A stretch of 27,314 nucleotides of DNA from Candidatus Bathyarchaeum sp. (GCA_026014495.1 JAOZIF010000106.1:1-27314); one strand, 5' to 3'. Shown: positions 5,368 to 25,311, counted from the stretch's first letter. Numbers and translations are program-made. The notes: generated by a model from the sequence alone, not told the origin.

Positions 5368-5451
5368 AAACTAAAAATTCCCCATGTTTTAATTGTGATA
5401 AATCTTTAAAAGCTTCACCCATCAACCTAGAATACTACAAGTACCTCTGGT

Positions 5452-6420: not shown

Positions 6421-6527
6421 ACAATAAACCTGAATGCAAAAGTGTTTAAACTAAACTACAAACACTTGATTGTTAGAAAACCTAAAAAAGACCTGCACCC
6501 TTCTAAGAATGTGCTGAGGAACTTTTT

Positions 6528-7370
6528 ATGCTTGCTACCCTTCAGGGAGTATTCGAAGATCCAATTCTGATTTTAGAAATAGTCAGTACCGTAATCGGAG
6601 CCTTTGTTATTGTAACAATATTTAACCGGCTAATAGGTAGAATCGAAAAAAGAGGAGAACTAGAAAAAGGAAAACTTGTACATCTCAGAAGATTCTTCCA
6701 GATAATCATATACCTTGTAGCAGGTATCATAGTACTCTCTCTTTTGGATGTCAACATTACAGGAGCAATTGCAGGTCTTGGAGTGGGTGCCTTAGTTATC
6801 GGCTTTGGCTTGAGCGACATAATAGAAAATTGGGTTTCTGGCGTTCTGATAATGTCAGGCAAAACTTTTGCCATCGGTGACGTAATCCGAGTTGGAACCT
6901 TAACAGGTACAGTCACGGACATAGCCCTCAGAACAACCAAACTAACCACTTATGACCGAAACGAGATAATCATCCCAAATGCAGTGCTTATTAAAGAAAA
7001 AATAATCAACCTCACTGGCGGAAAAAAAGAAGCGGTGGCAGAACTAACCTTTGCCATAGACTATACCGCAGATGCTGAAAAAGCCAAATCCATAATAGAA
7101 ACCATACTAAAAAACCACAAATCAGTCATCTTTAACCTGAAAAAGAAAAGAGAAATACGGTTCATTTTCCGCAACAAAGAGTGGACCAACGAAATTGAAA
7201 CCCTGTTTTGGATAAATGAACCCTCCAACGAAGAATTCATTAAATCAAACATTACCGAGTTAATCCAGAAAGCCTTCAAGAATGAATGTATACTGCCTCC
7301 AATTCCTTCACTGATGAGGAGAGAGTATCTAACTGGACAAAAAACACCAAACGACCAACAAACAGAATAG
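6528..7370 (+). CDS. mscS: Second MscS-family mechanosensitive channel
   Basis: GLGVGALVIGFGL...NWVSGVLI...F.IGDVI; LRTTKLTTYDRNEIIIPN. Confidence 0.9.
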   Translation: MLATLQGVFEDPILILEIVSTVIGAFVIVTIFNRLIGRIEKRGELEKGKLVHLRRFFQIIIYLVAGIIVLSLLDVNITGAIAGLGVGALVIGFGLSDIIENWVSGVLIMSGKTFAIGDVIRVGTLTGTVTDIALRTTKLTTYDRNEIIIPNAVLIKEKIINLTGGKKEAVAELTFAIDYTADAEKAKSIIETILKNHKSVIFNLKKKREIRFIFRNKEWTNEIETLFWINEPSNEEFIKSNITELIQKAFKNECILPPIPSLMRREYLTGQKTPNDQQTE

Positions 7371-8293: not shown

Positions 8294-8668
8294 ATGTATA
8301 AAGGCGGCTGGGGGTCATTGTTAGCTGAAGTGGTTATTGTGACACGTGTCCGGGTTCAAAAGATTGAATCTACTAAAGATCCTGAAGGCAATCTTGGTAA
8401 GCGCATCGAACTCATTGAGGATCGGGTAATCCCCAAGTTTGCTGTTAGGCCTGCAACAGAAGAGGCGCGAATGGTTCAAGAAGTAATGAAAAGTTTGCAA
8501 CAACAAATTCCAATGCTTGCTACACAAAAAACCCAGTTTGCTCTCCAGAAAATGATTTTGTTTCTAACAGAGAATGAATATGAACGTCTTGGAATTATCT
8601 TTGATGTGAATCAAATTTATGAGCTAGAACTGTCTGGACAATCTATTAGTTTCAAGAAATCATCTTAA
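8294..8668 (+). CDS. Arcadin-1 homolog
   Basis: DPEG..KRIELIE...P; TEEARMVQEVM; KMILFLTENEYERLG.IFDVNQIYELEL match the arcadin-1 pattern as recalled. The true start may be TTG 8318 after GGGGGT. Confidence 0.75.
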   Translation: MYKGGWGSLLAEVVIVTRVRVQKIESTKDPEGNLGKRIELIEDRVIPKFAVRPATEEARMVQEVMKSLQQQIPMLATQKTQFALQKMILFLTENEYERLGIIFDVNQIYELELSGQSISFKKSS

Positions 8669-11335: not shown

Positions 11336-11659
11336 TTGCTGCTGGAATCTCTTTTTGCCTTTCTAATTATCTTAATCCTTGCAACACTACTTTACTTATT
11401 CAGCCGTCTGTTAACCCAAAAATCACCTGACACCGAAGAAAAAAGCGCAATGTACGCCTGTGGAGAAAAAGTCTTCTCAAAAAGACTTCTTGTCAATGTA
11501 ACTCTCTACAAGTACCTCATATTCTTCGTAATCATAGACTCTCCTGCACTTATTCTAGCCTTTGCAGCCTTAGCCCTAGAAATGATTAATCCGTTTAGTT
11601 TACTGATTTATTTGGGCATAATTTTAGCGGCAGATTTGCTGCTTTTGGGAGGATATTAA
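11336..11659 (+). CDS. nuoA: NuoA/FpoA-like membrane subunit of the hydrogenase complex
   Basis: Three hydrophobic segments; K.AMYACGE loop (YECG-type); FFVIID; first gene of the operon. Confidence 0.75.
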   Translation: MLLESLFAFLIILILATLLYLFSRLLTQKSPDTEEKSAMYACGEKVFSKRLLVNVTLYKYLIFFVIIDSPALILAFAALALEMINPFSLLIYLGIILAADLLLLGGY

Positions 11660-11676
11660 AGACGCCCGACCTAGGC

Positions 11677-12090
11677 TTGTTGAAATGGGCTAGAACAAAA
11701 TCGCCTTGGTTGCTTCACTTCAACACAGGAGCATGCAACGGATGCGACATCGAAGTTGTTGCACTGCTCACACCCAGATACGATGTTGAACGTTTCGGCA
11801 TAAAACTGGAGCCCTCGCCCCGTCATGCAGATGTTCTTGTTGTAACTGGGCCTGTGACAAAGCAGTGTGCACCACGGCTCAAGATGATTTATGAGCAGAT
11901 GCCCTCGCCAAAATTTGTCATAGCCGTAGGTGCCTGTGCATGTTCTGGCGGAATATTTCAGGACTGCTACAACATAAGTGGGCGACTCGACGAGATAATT
12001 CCGGTAGACGTATATATCCCGGGTTGTCCTCCAAAACCCGAAGCAATAGTTCAGGGCGTTGCTAAACTGCTTGGAAAACTGAAGGGATAA
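11677..12090 (+). CDS. nuoB: Group 4 [NiFe]-hydrogenase small subunit (NuoB/MbhJ/HycG family)
   Basis: ACNGCDIE (hydrogenase-type CxxC rather than the tandem CC of complex I), SPRHAD, GACACSGG, PGCPPKPE. Confidence 0.92.
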   Translation: MLKWARTKSPWLLHFNTGACNGCDIEVVALLTPRYDVERFGIKLEPSPRHADVLVVTGPVTKQCAPRLKMIYEQMPSPKFVIAVGACACSGGIFQDCYNISGRLDEIIPVDVYIPGCPPKPEAIVQGVAKLLGKLKG

Positions 12091-12093
12091 ACC

Positions 12094-13767
12094 ATGGAAA
12101 AGTTTGAAACTGCTGTAGATGTTCTCAAGAACAATTTGGCTGATGCTATTGTTGAGCTAAAGGTTCCTAGGCCCAGAAAAGCCTACATTCTTCTTAAGTC
12201 TGAACGCCACAGAGATGCAGTCTCTTTGCTTCTGAAGCATGTTGAAGAGTCGATGCTTTCGACAATAAGTGGCGTTGACTTGGGAACTGAGATAGAGTTA
12301 AACTACCACATGGTTTGTGGGGGAACAGTAACCCTCAAAAATCGGGTTCCACGAGAAAAACCTGTTACAAAAACAATTACTGATATTTTGCCTGGAGCAA
12401 ATTTGTATGAGCGCGAAGTATTCGACCTTTTAGGCGTCGTTTTTGAGGGGCATCCTAACCTAGAACGGTTGCTACTTCCTGACGGCTGGCCTAAAGGAAA
12501 CTATCCTCTCAGAAGAGATTGGACGCCTCCACTTATTCAAGAAAACGATTCGGGTTCTGAGGAAGATTCGCAGAATAATTCAGAGGAAGATGATGTTGGG
12601 TCACTAGTTAGTGTTGTTGTGGGTCCTCAGCATCCAGTTTTGCATGAACCTGAGCGATTCAATTTCACTGTTGATGGCGAGACTGTTGTAGATGTTAAGC
12701 CCCGTCTTGGCTATGTTCATAGGGGTATTGAAAAAGCGGCTGAGCGTATGATGTACTTCCAAGACGTGTTTTTGGTGGAACGTATATGTGGTATCTGTAA
12801 TGCTGCTCACACAACCGTTTTCTGTCAAGCTGTTGAGGACATCGGAAACATTGAAACTCCGCCTCGGGCTTTATACTTACGTACCATTGTGCATGAGTTG
12901 AACAGGGTTCACAGTCACCTTTTGCTGCTTGGTGTTGGTGGTCACCTGCTTGGGTTTGAAGCACTATTCCAGCATGTTTGGCGTGACCGTGAGCCAGTGA
13001 TGGATATTATTGAGCAAATTACTGGCAACCGTTTGATGAGCGGCTTTAACACAATCGGCGGAGTAAGGCGCGATATTAATCCCAATACCGTCGAGAAAGC
13101 CCTAAAGACTGTCAAGGCAGTTAGGAAACGGGCTGTTTTCTACAAGAACGTGTTCGAGGAAGATGCAACATTGAGGCTCCGAACCGAAGGTGTTGGCGTG
13201 TTAAGCAAAGAAGTTGCTCTGAAGCTATGTGTTGTTGGTCCTGTTTTGAGAGGGTCAGGTGTTGCTTCGGATGTCAGAAAAGATGATCCTTACGCAGCGT
13301 ATGCTGAAATTCCTTTCAATGTACCCTGTTATGATGAGTGTGACACGTGGGCTCGGCTGATGGTCAGGGTTGACGAGGTGGTGGAAAGCTTGAACATCCT
13401 AGATTATGCGTTTAACAACCTTCCGGGTGGACGTTTGCGGGTTAGGGTTCAACGTAAAATACCTGAGGGCGAGGCTGTTAGTCGTGTTGAAGCTCCTCGA
13501 GGAGAACTTATACATTACGTTAAAAGTGATGGAACTGCGTATCCTTACAGGGTTAAGGTTAGGGCTCCAACTTTGGCGAACCTTCTGGCTTTTCCAGACG
13601 CTATTCGTGGCGGCTACATCGCTGACATTCCCTCTGTGATGGGAAGCTTAGACCCCTGCTTTTCTTGCACTGATCGTATGGCATTCGTTGATACTGCAAA
13701 TGGTCAAAAATGGCGCTGGAGCCTTGACGACGTAAACAGTCACAAAAACCGGAGAGTGCTACTCTAA
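12094..13767 (+). CDS. Group 4 [NiFe]-hydrogenase large subunit, fused NuoC+NuoD (HycE-like architecture), with C-terminal extension
   Basis: NuoC motif ERE.FDLLGV.FEGHPNLERLLLP..W...YPLR; GPQHP; GY.HRG.EK; L1 RICGIC (12781-12798); L2 DPCFSCTDR (13651-13677) plus a 29-aa tail. Confidence 0.93.
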   Translation: MEKFETAVDVLKNNLADAIVELKVPRPRKAYILLKSERHRDAVSLLLKHVEESMLSTISGVDLGTEIELNYHMVCGGTVTLKNRVPREKPVTKTITDILPGANLYEREVFDLLGVVFEGHPNLERLLLPDGWPKGNYPLRRDWTPPLIQENDSGSEEDSQNNSEEDDVGSLVSVVVGPQHPVLHEPERFNFTVDGETVVDVKPRLGYVHRGIEKAAERMMYFQDVFLVERICGICNAAHTTVFCQAVEDIGNIETPPRALYLRTIVHELNRVHSHLLLLGVGGHLLGFEALFQHVWRDREPVMDIIEQITGNRLMSGFNTIGGVRRDINPNTVEKALKTVKAVRKRAVFYKNVFEEDATLRLRTEGVGVLSKEVALKLCVVGPVLRGSGVASDVRKDDPYAAYAEIPFNVPCYDECDTWARLMVRVDEVVESLNILDYAFNNLPGGRLRVRVQRKIPEGEAVSRVEAPRGELIHYVKSDGTAYPYRVKVRAPTLANLLAFPDAIRGGYIADIPSVMGSLDPCFSCTDRMAFVDTANGQKWRWSLDDVNSHKNRRVLL

Positions 13768-13768
13768 G

Positions 13769-14764
13769 ATGGCCATTGACCTCATTTTTTTTGTGAGGAC
13801 ACTGGTATTTCCTGGATTCCTTTTCCTTTTAGTGTTGGTGCTCTTTTTTGACTGGTTTGAAAGAAAGGTTGCGGCTCGTTTCCAGAACCGCATGGGACCA
13901 TCGTATGCTGGTCCATTTGGTATCCTTCAGCCAATAGCTGATTACATTAAGCTGTTTTCGAAGGAAGACATTACTCCAAAGCAAACCAACAAGTTTTTGT
14001 TTGTTGTGGCTCCAATTCTTGCGTTTTCGCTCTTTGTTTTTGCCCTTTTTTACATCCCGATTGACGGCTCGAACGTGATTTTGGATTCAAGTTTCGAGGG
14101 CGATTTGCTTTTGGTTTTGCTTTTGGTGACTCTTGCTAATTTTGGAATTTTTCTTTCTGGTTGGGCTTCTTTGAATCCTTACAGTGGAATTGGTGCAACC
14201 CGAATTTTGACGCAGTTTCTTGGTTATGACATTCCTCTTATCCTTTTGGCGATTGGTCCTGCTTTTCTTGCAAAAAGTTTGTCCATTGTGAGTATTGCAT
14301 CTAGCCAAGTTACTGTTCCATTTATTTTGTTGATTCCTTGGTCTTGTGTCTTGTTTATTCTTGTTTTGCAGGCTGAGCTAGAAAAAGACCCCTTTGATAT
14401 TCCTCATGCAGAAACCGAGATTGTAGGCGGTTACGAAACAGAGTACAGCGGAAGAAAACTGGCTTTCATAAAGCTTTCAGAAGATTTCCAGTTCTTGATT
14501 GGTGCTTCTCTTGTCACTGTCCTGTTTTTGGGCGGCTTTCATGGGCCTGTTTTTATTGGACCTGCTGAATTTTGGTATGTTTTCTGGTTTATTGTTAAAA
14601 CTCTTGGTGTGGTGTTCATTTTAGAGTATGTGGGCAACGTGTCTGCCCGATTGCGTATAGACCAAGTTGTTCATGGCAACTGGAAACTGTTGATTCCTTT
14701 GTCTATTTTGTCTCTTGCTCTTACAATACTTGTTGAACCCTTGTTGCGGTCGGTGATTGGTTAG
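13769..14764 (+). CDS. nuoH: NuoH/MbhM-like membrane subunit
   Basis: ERKV.AR.Q.R.GP...G..QP.AD..KL..KE; AELEKDPFDIPHAETEIVGGYETEYSG; RLRIDQ. Confidence 0.93.
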   Translation: MAIDLIFFVRTLVFPGFLFLLVLVLFFDWFERKVAARFQNRMGPSYAGPFGILQPIADYIKLFSKEDITPKQTNKFLFVVAPILAFSLFVFALFYIPIDGSNVILDSSFEGDLLLVLLLVTLANFGIFLSGWASLNPYSGIGATRILTQFLGYDIPLILLAIGPAFLAKSLSIVSIASSQVTVPFILLIPWSCVLFILVLQAELEKDPFDIPHAETEIVGGYETEYSGRKLAFIKLSEDFQFLIGASLVTVLFLGGFHGPVFIGPAEFWYVFWFIVKTLGVVFILEYVGNVSARLRIDQVVHGNWKLLIPLSILSLALTILVEPLLRSVIG

Positions 14765-14776
14765 GAGGATAATTGT

Positions 14777-15178
14777 GTGACAAAAAAACGACGACGATTA
14801 CCCGCGCTGATAAAAGACATGGGCTCCTGTCTATTCAAAAAGCCCTTTACTCAAGAGTATCCTTTTGTTTCTGTGCAGGCTCCTGAAGGTTACCGCGGCA
14901 GACAAACTTTTGATCCTGAAAAATGCATCAGTTGTGGTTTATGTGAGCGAGACTGCCCTGCTAAGGCTATAGAACTTGTGGAAGTTTCTGGGAAACGGAT
15001 GCCCTATTTTTACCTTGACCGATGCATATTCTGTTATCAATGCGCGGAAGGTTGTCCAAGAAATGCAATACAGCTTTCTACAAATTTTGAGATGTCAACT
15101 ACAGAAAAAGACGAGTTGCTTGTAAAGGCAGAAGAATTTATTTCTAAACAAAACATCAGTTCGGACGAGGGACAATAA
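14777..15178 (+). CDS. nuoI: NuoI/MbhN-like 2x[4Fe-4S] subunit
   Basis: T..YP...YRG; CISCGLCERDCP and CIFCYQCAEGCP. Confidence 0.92.
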   Translation: MTKKRRRLPALIKDMGSCLFKKPFTQEYPFVSVQAPEGYRGRQTFDPEKCISCGLCERDCPAKAIELVEVSGKRMPYFYLDRCIFCYQCAEGCPRNAIQLSTNFEMSTTEKDELLVKAEEFISKQNISSDEGQ

Positions 15179-15179
15179 A

Positions 15180-15644
15180 ATGTGGCTTGAAACAGTTTTG
15201 GCTATTGGAATGGTGACTTCTGCGGTCTTCGCGATATATCTGAAAGAAACAGTTTCTTCGGTTTTGTCCCTGAGCACCATGATGATTTTGCTTGCTGTGC
15301 TTTACTTTAATTTGAATGCTCCGTTTGCTGCCATTTTTCAGTTGGCGTTAGGCACTGGAACTGCCGCAATTTTCCTTCTTGCTGGTGATTCGTTAACTAA
15401 GAAAAGTGACTTGAAAACATCCAGCAAAACCAAGTTTGTTGGGCTAATTGTTTCTGCTGTTTTATGTGTTCCTGTTATTGTTGGGACTGTGGCAACTGCG
15501 TCTTTGAGTGCTTCATTGGATTTGTCGATTTCTAGTGCAATATGGGAGTTTAGGGCAATCGATGTTCTTGCTCAAGGCTTAGTTGTTTTGACTGCTGCAC
15601 TTGGCGTAGTTATCCTTCTAAAAGAGGAACGGAGGCGCAAGTAA
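15180..15644 (+). CDS. nuoJ: NuoJ-like subunit (MbhD+MbhE-like)
   Basis: L.APFAAIFQL..G.G N-terminal half; WEFRAIDVLAQG C-terminal motif; positioned between I and K. Confidence 0.75.
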   Translation: MWLETVLAIGMVTSAVFAIYLKETVSSVLSLSTMMILLAVLYFNLNAPFAAIFQLALGTGTAAIFLLAGDSLTKKSDLKTSSKTKFVGLIVSAVLCVPVIVGTVATASLSASLDLSISSAIWEFRAIDVLAQGLVVLTAALGVVILLKEERRRK

Positions 15645-15980
15645 ATGGATTACATTATACTATCTGTTACTATATTGGCGATTGGAATAGTTGGATTGGT
15701 TACAAAACATGACTTGATCAAAATGCTGATCGCCATAGAAATGATTACTGCCGCAGCAACAATGAATTTTGTTGTTTTTGGTTCCTTAATGGAAAACTCT
15801 TTAGGTCAAGCCTTCTCGATTCTCGCTTTATCTGTTGACGCTTGCGTAACTGCTGTTGCTCTTGCACTTGCTATTGCAATCTACAAAAAACTAAACATCC
15901 GAGATGTTCGCGATCTATCGGAAATAACAGAGACCTCATCAGACAAAGAAACCCAAACCGTGGAGGAAGACCAAAAGTGA
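15645..15980 (+). CDS. nuoK: NuoK/MrpC-like subunit
   Basis: IGIVGL...LIKMLIAIEM; GQAF.ILA; three TM helices. Confidence 0.88.
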   Translation: MDYIILSVTILAIGIVGLVTKHDLIKMLIAIEMITAAATMNFVVFGSLMENSLGQAFSILALSVDACVTAVALALAIAIYKKLNIRDVRDLSEITETSSDKETQTVEEDQK

Positions 15981-18073
15981 TTCCGGTTGAGTACGCAGCG
16001 TGGTTATGCTGGGCGATTCCTTTTGCAGGTTCATTATTTGTACCTTTAGTTGCTAAGGTTCGTCGTAGAAGCGTTGGATGGTACGCGGTAGCCGTCACTT
16101 TTCTTGCGGTTGCATGTACACTCTCTTTGATTTCAGGTATGCTTGGTGGTCATGCTGATGCGCATGTGTATTCTATACCTTGGATGCCTGCTCTTAACAT
16201 TGATCTTAGTGTTCTTGTTGACCCGTTAAGCGTTATGATGGCAAACATTGCAGCCTGTATTGGCTTGCTAATCATGATTTACTCAGTAAACTATATGAAA
16301 AAAGAAAAGGCAACCCCTAGATTCTTTTTCTTTATGCTTCTTTTCATCGGGGGAATGCTTGGTTTAGTTATGGCCAACAATCTTTTGCAGATGTACTTTT
16401 TCTGGGAAACCGTTGGACTTTGTTCATACTCCCTTATCGGATTCTGGTACAGCCGAGATGACGCAGCAAAAGCAGGAATGAAAGCATTTATTGTAACAAG
16501 AGTTGGCGACATTTTCCTTTTACTTGGAATATTGTTGTTATATGTGAACACTGGCACCTTCAATTTTATGGAAATAAAGGAACTCATAGCCGCTGGGGCT
16601 GTTTCGGTTCCAATGTTAACTATATCAATTTTGATGCTGATTGGAGCTATCGGCAAATCTGCCCAAGTTCCGTTGCATGTATGGCTTCCAAATGCCATGG
16701 AAGGGCCATCACCTGTCAGTGCCCTTATTCACGGTGCAACAATGGTAAAAGCAGGAATCTATCTTGTGGCAAGAATCTACATCCTATTCTCGATAGTGCA
16801 ACCATGGTTAACAACAATCACCTATGTTGGCGGAATCACAGCTTTTCTTGCCGCAACCATGGCGTTGACCAGCTCAGACCTGAAACGTGTTCTCGCATTC
16901 TCAACAATAAGCCAGCTGGGTATGATAATGTCCGCGCTGGGAATAGGAACTGAGCTTGGTTGGTTCGCTAGCCAATTTCATGTAATCAGTCATGCACTCT
17001 TCAAGTCGCTTTTGTTTTTGTGTGCTGGAGTCATTATGCATGTTACTCACACACTTGACCTAAAGCAGCTTGGCGGTTTAAGAAAGGCAATGCCAATAAC
17101 TTTCATAGTGAGTGTTATTGGAGCGTTTTCTCTTGCTGGTATTCCGCCATTTAGTGGATTTTGGAGCAAAGACACCATATTTGAGGCTATAATATTAGCC
17201 AACAACGTTCCCTTGTTTATTTTGATATTTGGAACCTCTGTGCTAACAGCAATCTATAGTATACGCTGGATTTGTTCAGTTTTCCTTGGAGAAAGATCCG
17301 CGTTTCTGGCAGACCATCACATACACGACCCCAGCCCCATAATCTATGTGCCCCTTATCCTGTTGGCTGCTGCTTCATGCATTACAGGTTTCTTCAAAAC
17401 CCCACTAGAGCATTATCTTGGAGTACATGCTGAAGCTTCAATGTCTGGTGTACTTTTGGCAAGTGCAACTTCTGCTGTAATTCTTGCGATTGCAGTTCCT
17501 GTAGCCTATTATCTTTACTACAAAAAACGTGCAACTTCACTGTTTTTCGCAAGAAATCTTTTAAACAATCCACTTTATTTGTTAATATCTAATGGCTACT
17601 ATTTCGACGCCGTTTACAATAAAATCTTGAATGGAGTCATGGGTTTGGCACAATTCACCTGTAGAGTAATAGAACGCTCTGGAGTGCAGCAGTTCCCATA
17701 TGTTGTAGCATGTGGGGCTTCCAAGCTAGCCCAAGGTACACTAAACTATATCGAATCGTTTCTTGACCGATTCGTTTACGTCATAGCTGGTGGAGCTGTG
17801 ATTACTGCCCACAAAACCCATGTGCACCTTGACGCTTTTCTTGACCGCTTCTGCTACATTCTAGCCGGTGGAACCGTAGAGACTGCCCGAGTAACCCACG
17901 AATATATTGATTCATTCTTGGATAGAATGGTCTATCTTTTTGCAGGAAAAACTGTTGAGCATGGGCAGAAAATCAAGAAAATGCACCGAGGACCCCTGCC
18001 AGACTTTGTTTTGGCAGCCGCGCTCGGATTCTTCCTAATTGTAATATTACTATTATTAACTGCTTTGAGGTAA
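15977..18073 (+). CDS. nuoL: NuoL/MrpA-like antiporter-like subunit, about 698 aa from GTG 15977
   Basis: FFWE, GKSAQVPLHVWLP.AMEGP.PVSALIH.ATMV.AG, HALFK, GFWSKD; the GTG start overlaps the K stop (GTGA). The provided 15842 start is in frame but gives a non-homologous prefix. Confidence 0.92.
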   Translation: MIPVEYAAWLCWAIPFAGSLFVPLVAKVRRRSVGWYAVAVTFLAVACTLSLISGMLGGHADAHVYSIPWMPALNIDLSVLVDPLSVMMANIAACIGLLIMIYSVNYMKKEKATPRFFFFMLLFIGGMLGLVMANNLLQMYFFWETVGLCSYSLIGFWYSRDDAAKAGMKAFIVTRVGDIFLLLGILLLYVNTGTFNFMEIKELIAAGAVSVPMLTISILMLIGAIGKSAQVPLHVWLPNAMEGPSPVSALIHGATMVKAGIYLVARIYILFSIVQPWLTTITYVGGITAFLAATMALTSSDLKRVLAFSTISQLGMIMSALGIGTELGWFASQFHVISHALFKSLLFLCAGVIMHVTHTLDLKQLGGLRKAMPITFIVSVIGAFSLAGIPPFSGFWSKDTIFEAIILANNVPLFILIFGTSVLTAIYSIRWICSVFLGERSAFLADHHIHDPSPIIYVPLILLAAASCITGFFKTPLEHYLGVHAEASMSGVLLASATSAVILAIAVPVAYYLYYKKRATSLFFARNLLNNPLYLLISNGYYFDAVYNKILNGVMGLAQFTCRVIERSGVQQFPYVVACGASKLAQGTLNYIESFLDRFVYVIAGGAVITAHKTHVHLDAFLDRFCYILAGGTVETARVTHEYIDSFLDRMVYLFAGKTVEHGQKIKKMHRGPLPDFVLAAALGFFLIVILLLLTALR
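17750..17983 (+). repeat. Three tandem 78-bp (26-aa) repeats in the lateral-helix region of the L subunit, plus a degenerate 27-aa copy at 17669-17749
   Basis: FLDR Phe codons at 17759, 17837 and 17915 (78-nt period); consensus [IL][ED][SA]FLDR[FM].Y..AG..V. Confidence 0.9.
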
Positions 18074-18080
18074 AACAAAA

Positions 18081-19598
18081 ATGGAAACCCTATTAATTGC
18101 TTTGATGTTGCCTGCTCTGGCTATTCCAGTAGTGTATGGCATTGGAAAAAAATCTGCGAAAACTGCTGCTTTGATTCTTACATTAATTGTTTTGGTTAGC
18201 CTGTCTCTTTTGCTAACTTTGGTACCCACGGTTCTTAGTGAGGGACAATACATTGAATCGTATTATTGGATACCTACTTTAGGTTCGGCTTTCACGCTTT
18301 TTGTTGACGGAATAAGCCTGTCGTTGGCTATTGCCACATTAATACTTGTTTCAGCAACAACAGTATATTCAATAAACTATATGGAAGAGAAAAGTTCACT
18401 TCCAGAATATTTTGCGTTAATGAGCTTACTAACCATCGGGTTAATTGGAGTTTTCATAACCTCCAATCTTTTGCTCTTTTATTTCTGTTGGGAACTCATG
18501 CTTGTTCCAACATACTTTATCATAGGCGGCTGGGGATACAAGGACTCCTTCAAAACAGCCTTCAAATTTTTCATATTCACTCACGCTGGAGCAATCTTTG
18601 TTCTCTTAGGCATCGGCGCCATCTACATGCTCACCGGCACCCTTGACATATTCGAAGCCCAAGCCATTCTAGCCACCACAGTAGACCAAAGTATCTTACC
18701 TTGGGTGCTGATTTCGTTTGTTGCAGGATTTGCTGTAAAAATGGCTATTGTTCCACTTCATATGTGGCTTCCAGACGCGCACGGTGAATCACCTGCACCA
18801 ATGTCTGCACTCCTTAGTGGTGTAATAATTGGGGCTGGAGGATACGCTGTTTTGAGGATAGCTCTTGGAACCGTATACACTGCAATGGTGCCCGCAGGGA
18901 ACGAATTCTTGTTAGTGTTAAGCTTTTTCGGCGTATTATCCGCATTTTACGGGTCATTTTTGGCGTTAGCAGAAACCGACATCAAACGAATAATTGCTTA
19001 CTCTAGTATAAGCCACATGGGCTACGTTCTGTTTGCACTTTCCCTGTTTCCATCTTCCGAAGGAATCACTGGAGCAGTGCTCCATCTGGTTAACCATACC
19101 GCAAGCAAGGGGCTTCTCTTCTTGACCGCAGGCGCAGTCATGCACCAAACTGGCTTAAGAAACATAAATGACATGGGTGGTTTAGCTTCAAAAATGCCCC
19201 TAACCGCGATAGCAACTGCTATTGCAGCCTTTAGCATAGGTGGAATTCCACCGTTTGCATGCTTCATAAGTGAGTTCCACATTTTCGTTGGAGCTGTCAC
19301 CGCTGCTGGCGCAGATAGTTCATATTATTTGCCTACGATTTTGATGCTTATTGCAACTGTTTTCAGTCTCGCTTATGTCCTCAGATACTTCTGGAAAGTT
19401 TTCTTAGGGTCTCCCAAGGCAAAAACTGACGTTGAACCTGTTACAACCGATGAAACGGGTGAGCAAAAAACTAAGAATAATGACCCGTCAATGTTCATGC
19501 TTATTGCAATGCTTGCTTTGGCAGCGTTTGTTGTGATATTGGGAATTTATCCTGGAGTTTTCATTGATTTAATTCATGCTGTTACATCAATAATATGA
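18081..19598 (+). CDS. nuoM: NuoM/MrpD-like antiporter-like subunit
   Basis: FCWELM, FAVKMAIVPLHMWLPDAH.E.P, KRIIAYSSISHMG, NH..SKGLLF, ISEF. Confidence 0.92.
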   Translation: METLLIALMLPALAIPVVYGIGKKSAKTAALILTLIVLVSLSLLLTLVPTVLSEGQYIESYYWIPTLGSAFTLFVDGISLSLAIATLILVSATTVYSINYMEEKSSLPEYFALMSLLTIGLIGVFITSNLLLFYFCWELMLVPTYFIIGGWGYKDSFKTAFKFFIFTHAGAIFVLLGIGAIYMLTGTLDIFEAQAILATTVDQSILPWVLISFVAGFAVKMAIVPLHMWLPDAHGESPAPMSALLSGVIIGAGGYAVLRIALGTVYTAMVPAGNEFLLVLSFFGVLSAFYGSFLALAETDIKRIIAYSSISHMGYVLFALSLFPSSEGITGAVLHLVNHTASKGLLFLTAGAVMHQTGLRNINDMGGLASKMPLTAIATAIAAFSIGGIPPFACFISEFHIFVGAVTAAGADSSYYLPTILMLIATVFSLAYVLRYFWKVFLGSPKAKTDVEPVTTDETGEQKTKNNDPSMFMLIAMLALAAFVVILGIYPGVFIDLIHAVTSII

Positions 19599-19613
19599 CG
19601 AGGCGTACATTAA

Positions 19614-21095
19614 ATGAATATTATCGACATTCTATTACCAACAATAGTCTTCACGGTTTGCTCTTTACTAACCGTTCCACTTCTACGACTTGTACGAAAA
19701 ACCAAGTTTAATCCTCAACATTTCATGGTTGCTTGGGTACTTCTCACCTTTTCTGCAGCTGCGGCTGGAGTTTTTCGTATAGCAACAGAGTATTTTGGGC
19801 AGGCTGAGTCGTTTCTTCAGATTTCTTCTGTAGACACGCTTTTGGAGTCCATGTCAACGGTATTTCTTGTAGACACAGTTTCGGTTTACATGGTGATAGC
19901 CTACCTGATTGTAGGTTCAATCACGTGCCTGTATGGTGTTTTGCATGTTAGTTCACAGGAAAATCTGTCTGAAAGGTATTACGCGTTGATGCTTATGGTA
20001 ACTGGCACTGTGATAGCTGCTACTTTTTCAGGAGACTTGCTTACGCTTTTCATCTTTTGGGAGGCAACAGCGGCTGGTTCTTGTTTTCTTGTGGCTTACA
20101 AAAAGTCTCGTGAATCGCTTGAGTCTGCTTTGAAGTATCTGGTCATGGTCATTATAGCTTCTGGTTTTATAATCTATGGTTTATCCTTGATTTTTGGTCT
20201 TACGGGCTCGCTTAACTTCTGGACAGTTAGAGACGTTTTGTTAACTACTGCTAACCCTGAGCTTTTGGTGGTGGCTTTTGCTTTTATTATTGCAGGATAT
20301 GCTATCGAAACTGCTATTGTTCCGTTTCACATGTGGATGCCAGATGCTTACACTGCTGCTCCTGATTCTGCTTCAGCTTTCTTATCTTCAATAGTTGACC
20401 AAGGCAGCTACTATGTCTTGTTGCGTGTTTTGCTGTTTATTTTAACACCAACTGCGGTTGTTGATTGGCGATTTACTGTGGCAATATTTTCTGCGATTAC
20501 TATGACCGCGGGGAACTTGTTTGCGTTGGCACAGCAAAATGTTAAGCGCATGATTTCATACGTTTGTATTGCAGATATTGGCTATAACTTGATAGCTATT
20601 ACCAGCATCACTTCTATTGGTCTTATGGGTAACCTGTTCTTTTTCTTTGTTGCAGCCATGGAAACTGCTCTTGCCTTCATGGTTATTGGGGTTTTCAGAA
20701 AAATGGGATTGGAAACGTTAGATGATTTATCTGGTATGGGACGTAAAATGCCTTTGACCAGCGTGGCTTTTGTTTGTGCAGCTTTGTCGTTTTCTGGTGT
20801 GCCCCTGTTCGCAGGGTTCATCGCAAAGTACATGGTGTTTACTTCAGTTTTGCAGTCAAGCGTTGCGTGGTTAGCTGTGGTAGGCGTTCTAAACTCGGTT
20901 CTGCAAACATCTTACTTCCTAAGAGTGATACATTACTTCTATGCCAAACCCGCGAAAAGTGACGTACCATTCAAGGAGCCAAAAAAGTTGCTGGTGCCAA
21001 TTTATTGTTTGGTTGTCATAATTGTTGTTCTTGGATTATATCCTGATTTGGCGCTAGATTTGCTCTCTGCTGCTGCGGCATTGTTGCCTACGTAA
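19614..21095 (+). CDS. nuoN: NuoN/MrpD-like antiporter-like subunit with a divergent charged axis
   Basis: FIFWE, ESLESALKY, VPFHMWMPDAY..AP, KRMISY, S..GVP..AGF.AK; last membrane gene in the operon. Confidence 0.85.
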   Translation: MNIIDILLPTIVFTVCSLLTVPLLRLVRKTKFNPQHFMVAWVLLTFSAAAAGVFRIATEYFGQAESFLQISSVDTLLESMSTVFLVDTVSVYMVIAYLIVGSITCLYGVLHVSSQENLSERYYALMLMVTGTVIAATFSGDLLTLFIFWEATAAGSCFLVAYKKSRESLESALKYLVMVIIASGFIIYGLSLIFGLTGSLNFWTVRDVLLTTANPELLVVAFAFIIAGYAIETAIVPFHMWMPDAYTAAPDSASAFLSSIVDQGSYYVLLRVLLFILTPTAVVDWRFTVAIFSAITMTAGNLFALAQQNVKRMISYVCIADIGYNLIAITSITSIGLMGNLFFFFVAAMETALAFMVIGVFRKMGLETLDDLSGMGRKMPLTSVAFVCAALSFSGVPLFAGFIAKYMVFTSVLQSSVAWLAVVGVLNSVLQTSYFLRVIHYFYAKPAKSDVPFKEPKKLLVPIYCLVVIIVVLGLYPDLALDLLSAAAALLPT

Positions 21096-21143: not shown

Positions 21144-22643
21144 TTGGCAGCAAAAAAAGGCAACCTAATAGCATATAATGATTTGGAAAGTAAAATCATT
21201 AACTCTGGATTTTGTACCTTCTGTGGAGCATGTGAAGCGGCATGTCCTGTTCATGCGATAAAAATAGAGGGCTACAAAGTTGAGCACTCTGATTGCTCTA
21301 AACACATTGATTCCTGTCCGATATGTTATGAGATTTGTCCCCATTCTGATGAACTTGTTTCTGAAAGCCTAAAGTTTGTTTCAGACTCGCCTACAAAACG
21401 CGAAGGTTTAGGGTATTACAGAAGAATTCTGCTTGCACAAGCTGCAGACCCAGAGCTTAGAAAGCTTGGGCATGGTGGTGCTATTGTTACTACGCTTTTA
21501 ACAAACGCCATAGACACTGGGATGATAGATAGTGCGATTGTTTCTCAGGCGGAAACCAATATTCCAATTAAACCTAAAGCCCTTGTTGGTGTGGTTCCAG
21601 ATGACGTGTTTTCTGCTGTTGGGAGCAAATTCTTTCCATCATCTGTAGCTCGAGCTTATGGAAGTGCAGTTTATGAGTATGGAAAAGGCGATATTGCGTT
21701 CGTTGGGGTTCCTTGTCATGTGTTGGCTCTTCGTAAGCTTGAGGCTTGGGAACATAAAATCACTGGAAACCTAAAGGTGATAATTGGGCTCTTTTGTTTC
21801 TGGACACTTTCTTTTGGGCACCTGCTTGATTACCTGTCAAAAACTTACAACATTAACCCCGACGAGATAAAACGGCTTGATATAGTAAAGGAGTTGATAG
21901 TTCAAACCGACAAAGGTACAATAACCGTTCCATTGTCTGAAGTTAAGCCGCACATTTTAACTAGCTGTGAAACCTGCACTGATTTTACTTCAGAGTTAGC
22001 TGACATTTCTGTTGGAAGTGCTTATCCTCTTAAGGAGTGGTCTACAGTGATTATTCGAACAAAGGCTGGAGAGGACTTCTTTTATTCTGCAGTAGAGGCG
22101 GGGGTGATAAACACGGGCGTAATAGAGCTTGAGCCAGACGCTTTTGCGCATGTGATTGAGACTGCAGTGAATAAACGAAAAACTGCACTAAAAGAGCTAA
22201 ACGAAATGAAGGAAGCATATGTTCCTGTTCCAGTTAAGCCTTTACAGGAAATTTCTATTCTCTCCAAGTTTAAAGTGAAGGATGTTATGTCCAAGAAACT
22301 CAAAACAGTGTCTCCAGATTTTACTGTTAGTCAACTCTTGGATTTTATGGCTAAGCATCATCACACGGGGTATCCTGTTGTTGATGAAAGCGGAGACTTC
22401 ATGGGACTCGTCGCGTTGGAGGATGTTGTGAAGGTTGAGAAAGAGAAAAGAGATGAAGTTCTTATTCGTGACATCATTCAAAAGAATCCTGTTGTTATTT
22501 TTCCTGAAGAGCTTGCTTTGGATGCCTTCAAAAAGATGAGGGTTCATGATGCGGTTCGTATTGCGGTTGTTGACAACGCTAATCCAAAAAAAATAATTGG
22601 TATGCTCACTAAAACTGATTTGCGACACATTCTAAGTGACTAG
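21144..22643 (+). CDS. FpoF/FrhB-family (coenzyme F420 hydrogenase beta subunit-like) flavoprotein with N-terminal 2x[4Fe-4S] domain, fused to a C-terminal CBS pair
   Basis: CTFCGACEAACP and CPICYEICP; GGAIVT, GSKF, VGVPCH, IGLFC, CETCTDFTSELADISVG, WSTVIIRT..G; CBS pair from about 22269 (VKDVMS...YPVVD...G.V...D; I.....V...AVVD...GMLTKTDL). Confidence 0.9.
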   Translation: MAAKKGNLIAYNDLESKIINSGFCTFCGACEAACPVHAIKIEGYKVEHSDCSKHIDSCPICYEICPHSDELVSESLKFVSDSPTKREGLGYYRRILLAQAADPELRKLGHGGAIVTTLLTNAIDTGMIDSAIVSQAETNIPIKPKALVGVVPDDVFSAVGSKFFPSSVARAYGSAVYEYGKGDIAFVGVPCHVLALRKLEAWEHKITGNLKVIIGLFCFWTLSFGHLLDYLSKTYNINPDEIKRLDIVKELIVQTDKGTITVPLSEVKPHILTSCETCTDFTSELADISVGSAYPLKEWSTVIIRTKAGEDFFYSAVEAGVINTGVIELEPDAFAHVIETAVNKRKTALKELNEMKEAYVPVPVKPLQEISILSKFKVKDVMSKKLKTVSPDFTVSQLLDFMAKHHHTGYPVVDESGDFMGLVALEDVVKVEKEKRDEVLIRDIIQKNPVVIFPEELALDAFKKMRVHDAVRIAVVDNANPKKIIGMLTKTDLRHILSD

Positions 22644-22718: not shown

Positions 22719-23600
22719 GTGAGATTAATGAGCAATAAGCAACTTTTTAAGAAGATTCTTGTTCCTGTGGATGGTTCACACTCTTGTCTTCACGCTAAAA
22801 TGCTTGCGGCTTCTATCGCAAAAAAGTTCAAATCAAAAGTAACTGTGGTTCACGTTGCTTCTCATGAGTTTATGCATCCTGAACTGAAAGCACAGTATCA
22901 GTTGCCCCATTCAATTTTGCATAAGGTTGACGAGGCATATTTGCAGGCGGGCAAAAAAATCATCAGAAACGCCGAAGAAATGTTCAGAGAAGCTGGAATA
23001 ACTGTTGATTCTAAGCTAGTTACACACGAAGACCCTGCTGAATTTTTGCTTGAGTTAATAAAAAGCGAGAAATACTGTTTGGTTGTTATAGGAAATCGTG
23101 CTGAAAGTCAATCTGAGCGCTACTCTTTGGGAAGCGTTACCGAAAAAGTTGCAAGGCATTCTGAGTGTCCTGTTCTTATAGTCAAACAAAAACCAAAAGT
23201 TGAGAAGATTCTCACCGCTGTTGACGGCTCTAAATATGCAAACAAAGCACTTGAATATGCAGTTGAATTAACTAAAAGCTACAGCGCAAACTTGGCTCTA
23301 TTGCACGTTGAGGAAGACAAACTTGTTCGCATTGGCGGACCACAAGTTATGGATTGTCTTGGAACTGTTGGTGAATGTATCCTAAAAGATGCATCAACTA
23401 AAGTTCAAGGCGTTAAATTTGACAAGATGCTGGAATATGGTAGCCCTGCAGAAATAATAATCAAAGTTGCAAAAAAGGCAGATGTTGACATTATCGTTGT
23501 AGGAAGCAGAGGCTTAAGCAGTGTAAGAAGATACCTGCTTGGCAGCGTCAGCGACGACATAAGCATGCATGCAAGAAGTTCAGTGCTAATTGTCCGATAA
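22719..23600 (+). CDS. Tandem-domain universal stress protein
   Basis: Two USP domains (KKILVPVDGS; KILTAVDGS); GSRG...LLGSVS in the second. A BRE/TATA-like GAAAGTTAAAATA at about 22683-22695 suggests start at ATG 22728. Confidence 0.92.
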   Translation: MRLMSNKQLFKKILVPVDGSHSCLHAKMLAASIAKKFKSKVTVVHVASHEFMHPELKAQYQLPHSILHKVDEAYLQAGKKIIRNAEEMFREAGITVDSKLVTHEDPAEFLLELIKSEKYCLVVIGNRAESQSERYSLGSVTEKVARHSECPVLIVKQKPKVEKILTAVDGSKYANKALEYAVELTKSYSANLALLHVEEDKLVRIGGPQVMDCLGTVGECILKDASTKVQGVKFDKMLEYGSPAEIIIKVAKKADVDIIVVGSRGLSSVRRYLLGSVSDDISMHARSSVLIVR

Positions 23601-23639
23601 ACTGTTCATTTGAGAAAATATTCTCCAGCAACGCTACAG

Positions 23640-24026
23640 CTACTTTTTTACTACAAGTACGTTGCAGTTTGCTTTGGAAACTACCTGTTTTGATACGCTG
23701 CCTAACAAGAAAGCTGCAGCATTACCCAGTCCTCTGCTGCCAACTACTATTAAGTCAATTTTCTCGTTTTCTGCAGTGTCAACCAACGCTCGGGACGGAT
23801 TGGAGCCAAGAATAGGCTCTAAACTAGACTCGATTTTTTCTTCATCTAAAAGCTGTTTTACTTTTAGCTGAGTTTTGGCTGCTTCGTCTGCTTCTCCTCG
23901 TTTGTAGATTGTAATAACTTTTATGTGACCTGAAAACTTTTTTGCGATGCTAATTGCTTCCATAAGTGCCCATGTGGAATTGTCTGAGCCGTCAACTCCT
24001 ACTAAAATTTTCATTCCTGTTTTCAT
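23640..24026 (-). CDS. Single-domain universal stress protein
   Basis: KILVGVDGS; IVVGSRGLGNAAAFLLGSVS; CNVLVVK. Confidence 0.93.
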   Translation of the reverse strand: MKTGMKILVGVDGSDNSTWALMEAISIAKKFSGHIKVITIYKRGEADEAAKTQLKVKQLLDEEKIESSLEPILGSNPSRALVDTAENEKIDLIVVGSRGLGNAAAFLLGSVSKQVVSKANCNVLVVKK

Positions 24027-24111
24027 TTATTTAACCTCGCGAATGTTTCCCCTTTTTTATTTTAGAATTGTTACTATTCATTATTTATTCGCCCAAGTTT
24101 TAATGCTTTCT

Positions 24112-25311
24112 CTATGCTTTCGCATCCATAAGTCCTGGATTATTTTTTATGCCTCTGGCAAGAATTGGCGGAAGGATAAGCGTAGTTATTAGACTCATCG
24201 ATACTAGGGCAGAGAAAATCTCTGGAGAAATTAAGCCATACTGTATTGCAATCAATGCAATCACCAATTCTGCTGCGCCTCTTGAGTTCATTGCCCAGCC
24301 TACATAGTAGAGTTGTTTCCAGCTTAGGCTAGAGACTGGTTTAACAATTAATGTTCCTATAATCTTTCCAACAGTTGCAATTGTTACTGTTATTGCTATC
24401 ATGGGTATGTTGGCAAGAAATGTGTCGATGTCAAATGTTAATCCAACGTTTACGAAAAAGAATGGAACAACAAAGCCCATTGCAATAAGTTTGATTACAT
24501 TTAGCAACTGTTTTCGGTTCTTTTTGCTGATTTTTTTCATTGATGCCTGCAGTAGAAAACCTCCGAGAATAGCACCAATCAAGTAGCCCACGTTCAAGGA
24601 TTCGGAAAGAGCTGCAAGAACCAGAATGAAAATGAGCACTATAGAAAACAGTTCTGTTTCTTCACCTGTTTTTTTGTCTAGGTTCTGTAGAACTTTTGAA
24701 ATTATCTTGAACGCGATGAACGCAATTACAAGGAAGACAATCATTTCTACGGGAATCATTGCTAAATCAAGTAAGCTTCCGCCCTTTGCCAAGACTACTA
24801 CTAGCGCCAAAAATAGTACTTCAAAGATGTCGTCTATTGCGCCTGCGGCAAGCATTATTGCTCCCAGTCGGGTGTTTAAGACGTTAAAGTCCATGAGCAC
24901 CTTAACGTTTGTTCCTTCGGAGGTAACCATCAGTGCACCCCCAAAAATGACGCCTGCCATAAAGCCTTGTTCAGGGAAAAGTAACATGATAAAAATGAAG
25001 CCCAGTGCAAATGGAATTAGCGCAGAGCAAATTGATATGAGAATTGAATCTCTTGATGTCTCCTTTATTTTTTCGATTTCAATCTCTAATCCTGCCAAAA
25101 AGAGAAGCAGTAGTATTCCAAGTGTAGCCAAAAAATCGATTATTACAAGCGTTGATCCTTCGCCGAAGAATAGTTCCTTTAATGCTGGGATTCCAAACAT
25201 TAGGCCTGCGAGTATTTGTCCAATAACTGATGGCAAGCCAATTTTTTTGAACATCTCACCGAGTATGAATGCGGCAATCAGAATGATGGGTACAATTGCT
25301 AATATTTCCAT
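24112..25311 (-). CDS. CPA2-family cation:proton antiporter (NapA-like)
   Basis: G..LLLFLAGLE; VTS; AGAIDD; GAILGG; FVVPFFFV.VG; GK..G; MNSRGA.EL. Confidence 0.9.
   Translation of the reverse strand: MEILAIVPIILIAAFILGEMFKKIGLPSVIGQILAGLMFGIPALKELFFGEGSTLVIIDFLATLGILLLLFLAGLEIEIEKIKETSRDSILISICSALIPFALGFIFIMLLFPEQGFMAGVIFGGALMVTSEGTNVKVLMDFNVLNTRLGAIMLAAGAIDDIFEVLFLALVVVLAKGGSLLDLAMIPVEMIVFLVIAFIAFKIISKVLQNLDKKTGEETELFSIVLIFILVLAALSESLNVGYLIGAILGGFLLQASMKKISKKNRKQLLNVIKLIAMGFVVPFFFVNVGLTFDIDTFLANIPMIAITVTIATVGKIIGTLIVKPVSSLSWKQLYYVGWAMNSRGAAELVIALIAIQYGLISPEIFSALVSMSLITTLILPPILARGIKNNPGLMDAKA

Follow-up and report, generated by a model that had tools for sequence, protein, structure and literature searches.

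A 27,314-nucleotide (nt) stretch of DNA from Candidatus Bathyarchaeum sp. (GCA_026014495.1, JAOZIF010000106.1:1-27314), referred to here as the window, carries an operon of ten genes whose sequences support the reading that it encodes a group-4 [NiFe]-hydrogenase head on the full membrane chassis of complex I and of Fpo, the F420H2:methanophenazine oxidoreductase of Methanosarcina. The ten genes on their own repeat the 2021 description of the archaeal hydrogenase Hfo (PMC7886697). Together with the next gene downstream, named F here, which encodes a flavoprotein of the FrhB family with a CBS pair, they constitute a new lineage variant of Hfo, distinguished by a fusion of the C and D subunits and by the attached FrhB-CBS gene. 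The composite that we favour, a true ion-coupled hydrogenase with F as a docked F420-type module, is considered reasonably probable.

The window is one contig (C71) of a Bathyarchaeia genome (G000) of 2.19 Mb in 196 contigs, 93% complete. Gene identities were assigned by Pfam and NCBIfam profile matches on the open reading frames (ORFs) of the window. The features under discussion are as follows.

11336-11659, plus strand: HfoA, NuoA-like, 107 aa, with a TTG start behind a GGTGAGG ribosome-binding site (PF00507, E 6e-8)
11677-12090, plus strand: HfoB, hydrogenase-type small subunit, NuoB-like, 137 aa (PF01058, E 1e-36)
12094-13767, plus strand: HfoCD, NuoC domain fused to a [NiFe] large subunit, 557 aa (profile matches, L1 and L2 motifs)
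13769-14764, plus strand: HfoH, NuoH-like, 331 aa, a full-length NuoH homologue (PF00146, E 2.5e-90)
14777-15178, plus strand: HfoI, NuoI-like, 2x[4Fe-4S], 133 aa, predicted docking site of the flavoprotein (Pfam and NCBIfam)
15180-15644, plus strand: HfoJ, NuoJ- or MrpB-DUF4040-like, 154 aa (PF00499, 34 bits against a cut-off of 33.2; best NCBIfam matches are Mrp DUF4040 models)
15645-15980, plus strand: HfoK, NuoK-like, 111 aa (PF00420, E 3e-19)
15977-18073, plus strand: HfoL, NuoL-like antiporter subunit, 698 aa (NuoL model NF005141, 541 bits, positions 4-606 of 615)
17747-17980, plus strand: triple 26-residue tandem repeat in the lateral element of HfoL, residues 591-668 (YIESFLDRFVY... 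/ HLDAFLDRFCY... / YIDSFLDRMVY...)
18081-19598, plus strand: HfoM, NuoM-like, 505 aa (TIGR01972, 344 bits, above cut-off)
19614-21095, plus strand: HfoN, NuoN/MrpD-like, 493 aa (TIGR01770, 255 bits)
21144-22643, plus strand: F, candidate twelfth subunit 'HfoF', 499 aa (ferredoxin domain, FrhB core and CBS pair)
22719-23600, plus strand: tandem-Usp protein, 293 aa (PF00582)

The ten ORFs of the operon (11336-21095) lie on the same strand in the order A-B-CD-H-I-J-K-L-M-N, matching NuoA, NuoB, a NuoC-NuoD fusion and NuoH to NuoN, and thereby cover all 11 subunit families (A, B, C, D, H, I, J, K, L, M and N) in nuo/fpo order. The intergenic gaps measure 17, 3, 1, 12, 1, 0, 7 and 15 nt, and the GTG start of HfoL overlaps the TGA stop of HfoK by 4 nt, the sole overlap in the operon. 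These coordinates and the family matches, in which L, M and N each match Proton_antipo_M, agree with a preliminary description of the sequence that had reported ten tightly packed genes (gaps of at most 17 nt, one 4-nt overlap) in nuo/fpo order with three antiporter-like subunits. The ten-gene anatomy of that description stands; its operon stopped at HfoN, and the FrhB/FpoF-like-CBS gene 48 nt downstream was overlooked. A closed genome from this genus and numerous further Bathyarchaeia have the operon in synteny, indicating that the arrangement is not due to chance.

HfoCD carries the L1 motif RICGICNAAH at residues 230-239 (window 12781-12810) and the L2 motif DPCFSCTDR at residues 520-528 (window 13651-13677), the latter followed by a 29-residue HycE-like C-terminal tail. 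CGICNAAH and DPCFSCTDR agree with the published definitions of L1, C[GS][ILV]C[AGNS]xxH, and L2, [DE][PL]Cx[AGST]Cx[DE][RL], which contain the four Ni-Fe cysteines (PMC7886697). The alignment of 20 large subunits from relatives, with a mean column identity of 44%, showed all four Ni-ligating Cys to be invariant. In HfoB, the motifs GACNGCDIE, GACACSGG and GCPP provide C20-x2-C23 (CNGC), C87/C89 and C117, and the CxxC, which is kept in relatives, sits where NuoB of complex I has a tandem CC; a CxxC with two further Cys, ligating one proximal [4Fe-4S] cluster, is typical of hydrogenase small subunits. Both the four Ni ligands and the CNGC small subunit had been read correctly in the preliminary description. 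Among solved structures, HfoCD matched HycE (7z0s_E, 290 bits) and MbhL (6cfw_L, 280 bits) best, versus 232 bits for Nqo4 of T. thermophilus, about 219 for NdhH and 194 for Mbs. It is the only NuoD-like gene detected in the genome.

The gene order and subunit set, identical to those of Fpo and Nuo, and the full-length NuoH homologue would also suit an Fpo/Nuo-like respiratory complex with a membrane carrier as electron acceptor, in which the Cys motifs would be relics. Such a complex is hardly credible here, since the four Cys are conserved along with the remaining L1 and L2 residues and a protease-type tail at the mean identity given above, HfoB has the hydrogenase CxxC whereas B of respiratory complex I and Fpo has the tandem CC and D there lacks Ni ligands and forms a quinone or phenazine site, HfoCD lies closer in sequence to the hydrogenase subunits HycE and MbhL than it does to NuoD, and methanophenazine synthesis genes were not found in the metagenome-assembled genomes (MAGs) of Loh et al. 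(PMC7886697). We infer that Hfo contains Ni and turns over H2. The genome encodes HypB-HypA-HypD, with HypD matched twice, and one HycI-family protease. The Hyp genes were downgraded as evidence for the maturation of Hfo, because a Mvh-type group 3c hydrogenase in the same genome requires this machinery too.

The C-terminal tail of the large subunit varies among relatives. In one CD-fused Hfo subclade, the large subunit terminates exactly at DPCFSCTDR without a protease-cleaved tail (loci L011, L012, L017, L028, L038, L039, L043, L044, L046, L049, L051, L053, L055-L059 and L064), and tails of about 24-39 residues are kept in the subclade of the window and in most others. The large subunits of Ech and CooH are likewise not known to carry a protease-cleaved tail.

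The membrane arm retains most of the charged residues that were compared with E. coli complex I. All eight residues checked in HfoL against NuoL are kept (E144, D178, K227, H335, H339, K343, K398 and D399), as are five of the six checked in HfoM (E138, K220, H312, H339 and E398) and, in HfoN, E150 and K405, the Glu of transmembrane helix (TM) 5 and the Lys of TM12. Glu232 and Asp262 of HfoN align with K217 (TM7) and K247 (TM8) of NuoN in an alignment of only 25% identity, and would invert the charge at these two positions of the last of the three antiporter-like subunits. In the connecting subunits, Asp68 of HfoA aligns with NuoA D79, Glu32 of HfoK with NuoK E36, the position of NuoK E72 being Val, and R145, D154, D210 and E217 of HfoH with charged residues of NuoH. 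The C-terminus of HfoL forms a long amphipathic lateral element and a final TM helix, like that of NuoL. Despite the equal number (three) of antiporter-like subunits, HfoL is about 85 residues longer than NuoL, and the three tandem 26-residue repeats account for this length. The repeat consensus is approximately Y/H-I/L-D/E-S/A-F-L-D-R-F/M-x-Y-x-x-A-G-G/K-x-V; three copies are also present in the related locus L001, two in L010, and one or none in most other relatives. The preliminary description had stated that neither nuoEFG nor an MrpE/F/G (MbhA-C) Na+ module is present, in agreement with the Pfam and NCBIfam matches, in which no ORF of the window belongs to the NuoE/F/G or MrpE/F/G families; MnhG/MbhC (PF03334) was not found in the whole 93%-complete genome either. 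Based on the residues kept, Hfo would be expected to translocate ions.

The same architecture was described in Bathy-6 Bathyarchaeia by Loh, Herve and Brune in 2021, who named it Hfo, assigned its D subunit to HydDB subgroup 4g, reported Hfo-like clusters from Ca. Methanomethylicus and Pyrodictium, and argued that Hfo bridges the distance from energy-converting hydrogenases to complex I (PMC7886697). Within 4g, the large subunit of Hfo is assigned to 4g-6 and its sister groups. The operon of the window shares with it the 11 families in nuo/fpo order, the intact L1 and L2, the lack of NuoEFG and of MbhA-C, and the archaeal class. Unlike the published Hfo, it has a fused CD and, behind N, a gene of the FpoF/FrhB-like-CBS kind; in the paper, FpoFO is said to be missing and FrhB is taken to have no relation to Hfo (PMC7886697). 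The lack of an FpoF/FpoO or NuoEFG input module belongs to the published description of Hfo and does not define the family. The D subunit of the window also falls in another clade than the unfused, CofH-positive operons L023 and L084, which are guessed to be Bathy-6-like. Of the ion-pumping intermediate proposed in the preliminary description, the group-4 hydrogenase on a full chassis is upheld, and the evolutionary link is already the argument of the 2021 paper (PMC7886697); Hfo could be regarded as such an intermediate.

Other energy-converting hydrogenases differ from Hfo in gene order or subunit set. HycE of E. coli Hyd-3 (7Z0S), the best solved match, is itself a NuoC-NuoD fusion that ends in DPCYSCTDR and a tail, with which the tail of the window aligns. 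The tail of HycE is cleaved by HycI. E. coli Hyd-4 (Hyf) resembles Hfo in having three antiporter-like subunits (HyfB, HyfD and HyfF); no homologue of NuoA, NuoJ or NuoK was found among the Hyf proteins by phmmer, and both Hyd-3 and Hyd-4 have another gene order and receive electrons from formate dehydrogenase via HycB or HyfA. Mbh of P. furiosus (6CFW) is likewise a ferredoxin-linked, ion-translocating group 4 hydrogenase; it has one antiporter-like subunit and an MrpEFG-like Na+ module, which was not found in the window.

F starts 48 nt downstream of HfoN and encodes 499 residues, comprising an N-terminal 2x[4Fe-4S] ferredoxin domain, a core of the FrhB-type F420 reductase with FAD (flavin adenine dinucleotide) and [4Fe-4S] (residues about 88-363; Pfam matches include FrhB_FdhB_N and FrhB_FdhB_C) and a CBS pair (about 375-498). 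It scored 180 bits with the NCBIfam equivalog of FrhB (cut-off 269) and about 100 bits with that of FpoF (cut-off 475), indicating a member of the FrhB/FpoF family which is an orthologue of neither. The nearest solved relative is the zeta subunit of the carbon monoxide dehydrogenase/acetyl-CoA decarbonylase/synthase complex (CODH/ACDS) of Ethanoperedens (8riu_B, 172 bits, residues 6-371), followed by FrhB. FpoF ancestry was also considered; direct orthology with FpoF is not supported by these NCBIfam and PDB scores, which lie nearer to FrhB and the zeta subunit. Twelve Cys of F are invariant, including C191, C218, C275 and C278 of the core cluster. The predicted model (mean predicted local distance difference test, pLDDT, 80.5) gave target template-modelling scores (TM-scores) of 0.83-0.88 to 8RIU_B, 8RJA_E and FrhB, and its C-terminus matched nucleotide-binding CBS tandems; the CBS pair probably senses an adenosyl ligand.

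Two known systems contain related proteins. The zeta subunit and FwdI of Ca. Ethanoperedens thermophilum (8RIU/8RJA) have the same layout as F, with an FrhB core behind a 2x[4Fe-4S] domain; their N-terminal domain serves as the anchor, and they were shown to confer F420 reduction on CODH and formylmethanofuran dehydrogenase (PMC11493965). They differ from F in lacking the CBS pair and in being attached to those two enzymes, not to a hydrogenase. Fpo has the same chassis and gene order as Hfo, and FpoF consists of a ferredoxin domain followed by an FrhB core; FpoD lacks Ni ligands and the complex reduces methanophenazine, whereas the F of the window is closer to FrhB models and carries the CBS pair. 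No FpoO was seen. An F420-type input module is thus probably present by way of the F gene, and F is most likely a twelfth, detachable subunit of Hfo. A scan for sigma-70 promoters and intrinsic terminators returned counts at shuffle level and, the host being archaeal, is uninformative on the co-transcription of N and F.

The association of F with group-4 hydrogenases was examined in an even sample of 150 Bathyarchaeia genomes plus the genome of the window (151 in total), of which 135 have FrhB-like and 121 D-like genes. Among the 121 genomes with both genes, at least 28, from at least 12 GTDB families, have an FrhB-family gene no more than 10 kb away from a D gene, mostly flanking the hydrogenase cluster directly, versus an estimated 2 or so genomes expected by chance adjacency. 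Related genomes are not independent of one another in this count, but their arrangements are very diverse. The arrangement N-F-CBS is found in the window, in L001 and in L010, which belongs to another family. F-CBS stands ahead of A in L012 and L059, is divergent from A in L039, and follows M in the rearranged cluster of L011. The order is A-B-C-D-H-I-F-CBS in L014, with a 14-nt overlap of I and F, and B-C-D-I-F-CBS without nearby membrane genes in L013, with a 6-nt I-F gap. B-D-I occurs with a convergent F in L019-L022, clusters that might conceivably be soluble F420-reducing hydrogenases, and F is divergent from an unfused Hfo in L023. Outside the class, B-C-D-I-F with a 6-nt I-F gap is present in a Nezhaarchaeota MAG (L063), and A-B-CD-H-I-J-K-L-M-N-F in a MAG labelled Promethearchaeota (L053). 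All D subunits in these linked loci keep L1 and L2, except that of L029. The Asgard-labelled MAGs L053 and L043 (Thorarchaeota) carry a CD-fused, nuo-ordered operon nested inside the Bathyarchaeia clade, which could be due to lateral transfer or mis-binning. A tandem-Usp gene adjoins F in L001, as in the window, and L059 has the order Usp-F-A; this was not seen in the other loci, and the tandem-Usp protein is possibly associated with the operon.

A comparable proposal is Ehi, an frhB-flanked group 4 [NiFe] hydrogenase of Methanonezhaarchaeia YNP3N for which F420H2 oxidation was proposed in 2025 (Sci Adv; PMC12700198). It resembles the system of the window as a membrane-bound group 4 hydrogenase with an adjacent frhB, and it is likewise a genomic and transcriptomic proposal. 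It differs in that the Nezhaarchaeota F falls outside the clade of the window F and has no CBS pair, and in that the locus is not in full nuo order.

Phylogenies of D and F were compared. The D tree had E. coli HycE and NuoCD as its named references and NuoCD plus the Ni-site-lacking L029 as outgroup, and included no Mbh, Ech or Fpo reference. The D subunit of the window was placed in a clade (Shimodaira-Hasegawa-like approximate likelihood ratio test, SH-aLRT, 98) of 22 CD-fused, nuo-ordered operons, with F present in all three of its deep branches. In the F tree, the Hfo-associated proteins formed a clade (SH-aLRT 99) whose inner branching equals that of the D tree, including a genome (G114) that has F-CBS on another contig. 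The deeper D and F clades mismatch, indicating some exchange of modules.

The docking of HfoI (17-row alignment) and residues 1-365 of F (39-row alignment) was predicted, and the pair scored 0.61 versus 0.11 for the best control, a mark reached by 58 of 80 solved complexes and by 2 of 110 mismatched pairs. Contact agreement among the runs was at least 49% and partner pLDDT at least 82. The predicted interface joins HfoI 49-58 and 92-96, around the C50/C53/C56/C93 cluster, to residues 33-36 and 54-60 of the ferredoxin domain of F. The eight Cys of HfoI are invariant in relatives, and the C50/C53/C56/C93 cluster is presumably the counterpart of the NuoG-facing cluster of complex I. The docking model supports binding of F to HfoI.

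In the mechanism that we favour, F would act as an FpoF/FrhB-type flavoprotein whose N-terminal ferredoxin domain docks on HfoI and links the chain to F420/F420H2. Electrons would pass between the two [4Fe-4S] clusters of HfoI, the proximal cluster of HfoB and the Ni-Fe site in D, where 2H+ and H2 would be interconverted, and this chemistry would be linked, in the manner of complex I and Mbh, to the passage of ions via the H/A/J/K channel and the three antiporter-like subunits. Reduced ferredoxin is probably a second partner, because some Hfo lineages have no F. As a more specific proposal, put forward tentatively, Hfo of the window would be a 12-subunit membrane-bound, ion-translocating F420:H2 oxidoreductase with its input flavoprotein gated by a CBS nucleotide sensor, that is, the hydrogenase counterpart of Fpo.

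Several observations weigh against the favoured composite. No subgroup 4g enzyme had been characterised by 2021 (PMC7886697), and no later biochemical or structural characterisation of Hfo or group 4g was found in a literature search, which yielded only Loh et al. and genome surveys; the preliminary description, which mentioned Fpo-like group 4g hydrogenases as a proposal from Bathyarchaeia genomes, had described the state of knowledge in the same way. Hfo operons L017, L025, L028 and many others have no adjacent F, and genome G102 has no close F orthologue, so that F is not obligatory. The 48-nt gap before F contains an A/T-rich stretch that could hold a promoter of its own. The docking result may reflect a likeness to solved ferredoxin-domain contacts, and HfoI was modelled without B, D and H. 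The supply of F420 and the energy balance, considered below, count on the same side.

The missing neighbours and the possible promoter fit a scheme in which the 11 subunits are the whole enzyme and exchange electrons directly with ferredoxin, with H2 reducing ferredoxin while the membrane potential is consumed, or with both processes reversed, and FrhB-CBS is an independent soluble enzyme (an F420:ferredoxin oxidoreductase or a partner of Hdr, for instance) that merely shares regulation or neighbourhood. This corresponds to the published model of Loh et al., who prefer a reduction of ferredoxin by H2 that the membrane potential drives, and who suggest HdrABC as a possible partner of FrhB (PMC7886697). 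It is possible but rather unlikely for the window, given that the linkage survives many rearrangements, including the membrane-less B-C-D-I-F loci with 6-nt I-F gaps, that F and D co-diverge, that F is the sole FrhB-family gene detected in the genome, and that HfoI and F scored above the controls in docking.

The evidence for F420 in these archaea is mixed. In the genome of the window, Mer (444 bits) and CofE (283 bits) were above cut-off, and CofE is present in 133 of the 151 Bathyarchaeia genomes, with scores above the cut-off in 131. Searches of the window's genome for CofD and for the FO synthase CofH found neither, and complete de novo F420 synthesis was accordingly dropped as support for the F420 reading. 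CofH was also not found in five relatives with F-CBS beside hydrogenase genes, one of them the closed genome of the same genus, nor was CofD in four of these five, the same-genus G098 being the one that has it. Class-wide, CofH occurs in only 16 of the 151 genomes (families f11, f20 and f15), versus 135 with FrhB-like genes. Hence F420 has to come from salvage, unless F serves a different acceptor. Most simply, these archaea would be users of F420 that obtain its deazaflavin by salvage, and the class-wide pattern suggests F420 use across Bathyarchaeia with deazaflavin salvage, or a novel route of synthesis. FrhB-family paralogues lie about 1-3 kb from CofE in several genomes (G004:C2, G077:C39, G003:C5, G082:C1 and G136:C12), which supports an F420 link for the family in Bathyarchaeia.

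The second option, that F is a bound subunit with an acceptor or donor other than F420, like FrhB-family proteins in organisms without F420, draws on this shortage of CofH and CofD and on the occurrence of the FrhB fold in the ferredoxin-dependent 7-hydroxymethyl chlorophyll a reductase (HCAR, 5DQR). The FrhAGB of Thermococcus reportedly reduces rubredoxin. We regard this option as improbable, as CofE and Mer point to F420 use, FrhB paralogues adjoin CofE in several genomes, and the closest relatives of known activity all use F420. We infer that F420 is the substrate of F.

The energy balance bears on the partner of the core enzyme. With F420H2 at about -340 to -360 mV and proton reduction at about -266 to -296 mV at 1-10 Pa H2, electron transfer from F420H2 to H2 would yield about 8-18 kJ/mol, and moving one proton against 150 mV costs about 14.5 kJ/mol. 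This allows at most about one H+ per two electrons, a poor match to four putative ion paths. On redox values of the same kind, reduced ferredoxin would release about 29-39 kJ/mol at 10 Pa H2, so that a four-channel pump suits ferredoxin better than F420. As some Hfo lineages have no F, the core enzyme probably works with ferredoxin, and F would add F420 coupling or switch to it, as FpoF does on Fpo.

If the 12-subunit enzyme exists as proposed, an F420-type input was in operation on a complex-I chassis that had not yet lost the Ni-Fe site, and it would run in archaea seemingly unable to make deazaflavin and dependent on salvaged F420. Complex-I-shaped hydrogenases are the best living models for the origin of complex I and Fpo from hydrogen-evolving ancestors, and to our knowledge none has been purified. 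As Bathyarchaeia count among the dominant archaea of anoxic sediments, models of H2 and acetate cycling depend on which donor their main membrane hydrogenase uses and in which direction it runs. Should FrhB-CBS be a real subunit, the published energy scheme based on ferredoxin and H2 only, in which the source of F420H2 is unexplained, needs revision.

In species-representative genomes, 598 relatives of the D domain were detected, of which the best 80 were kept. Among these best 80 of 598, 43 form a bacterial clade, and 42 of the 43 have both L1 and L2 (loci L060, L065-L067, L069-L070, L072, L074-L083, L085-L088, L091-L094, L096-L108 and L110-L114). The clade spans at least 10 phyla, namely Elusimicrobiota, Omnitrophota, Planctomycetota, Bacillota, Acidobacteriota, Aminicenantota, Myxococcota, Spirochaetota, Chloroflexota and Margulisiibacteriota. 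Its loci have the order antiporter x3-J-K-A-B-C-D-H-I, that is, the full 11-subunit set in permuted order, and no F gene was found in them. C-terminal tails are 34-50 residues long in nearly all members (one of 21, and 31 in L066). Together with Hyf, this clade indicates that the combination of a Ni-Fe site with the full chassis is widespread among uncultured microbes, well beyond Bathyarchaeia. The contrast with known hydrogenases drawn in the preliminary description, which had set the operon against Ech and Mbh with one antiporter-like subunit each, was incomplete in this respect, as Hyf has three such subunits and 11-subunit relatives with the Ni site are widespread in bacteria.

The regions flanking the operon (4537-7370 and 22719-25311) contain genes of ion homeostasis and stress, encoding two MscS channels, a Na+/Ca2+ exchanger, the tandem-Usp protein, a single Usp protein and a Na+/H+ exchanger, and the upstream block is syntenic in L001. 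Further features lie upstream. An 864-residue protein with PQQ/BamB-like beta-propeller repeats, unrelated to the operon, is encoded at 484-3078. A homologue of Arcadin-1, a crenactin-associated cytoskeleton protein, is encoded at 8294-8668 (PF18653, E 9e-21), adjoining an acylphosphatase, and is conserved in L001.

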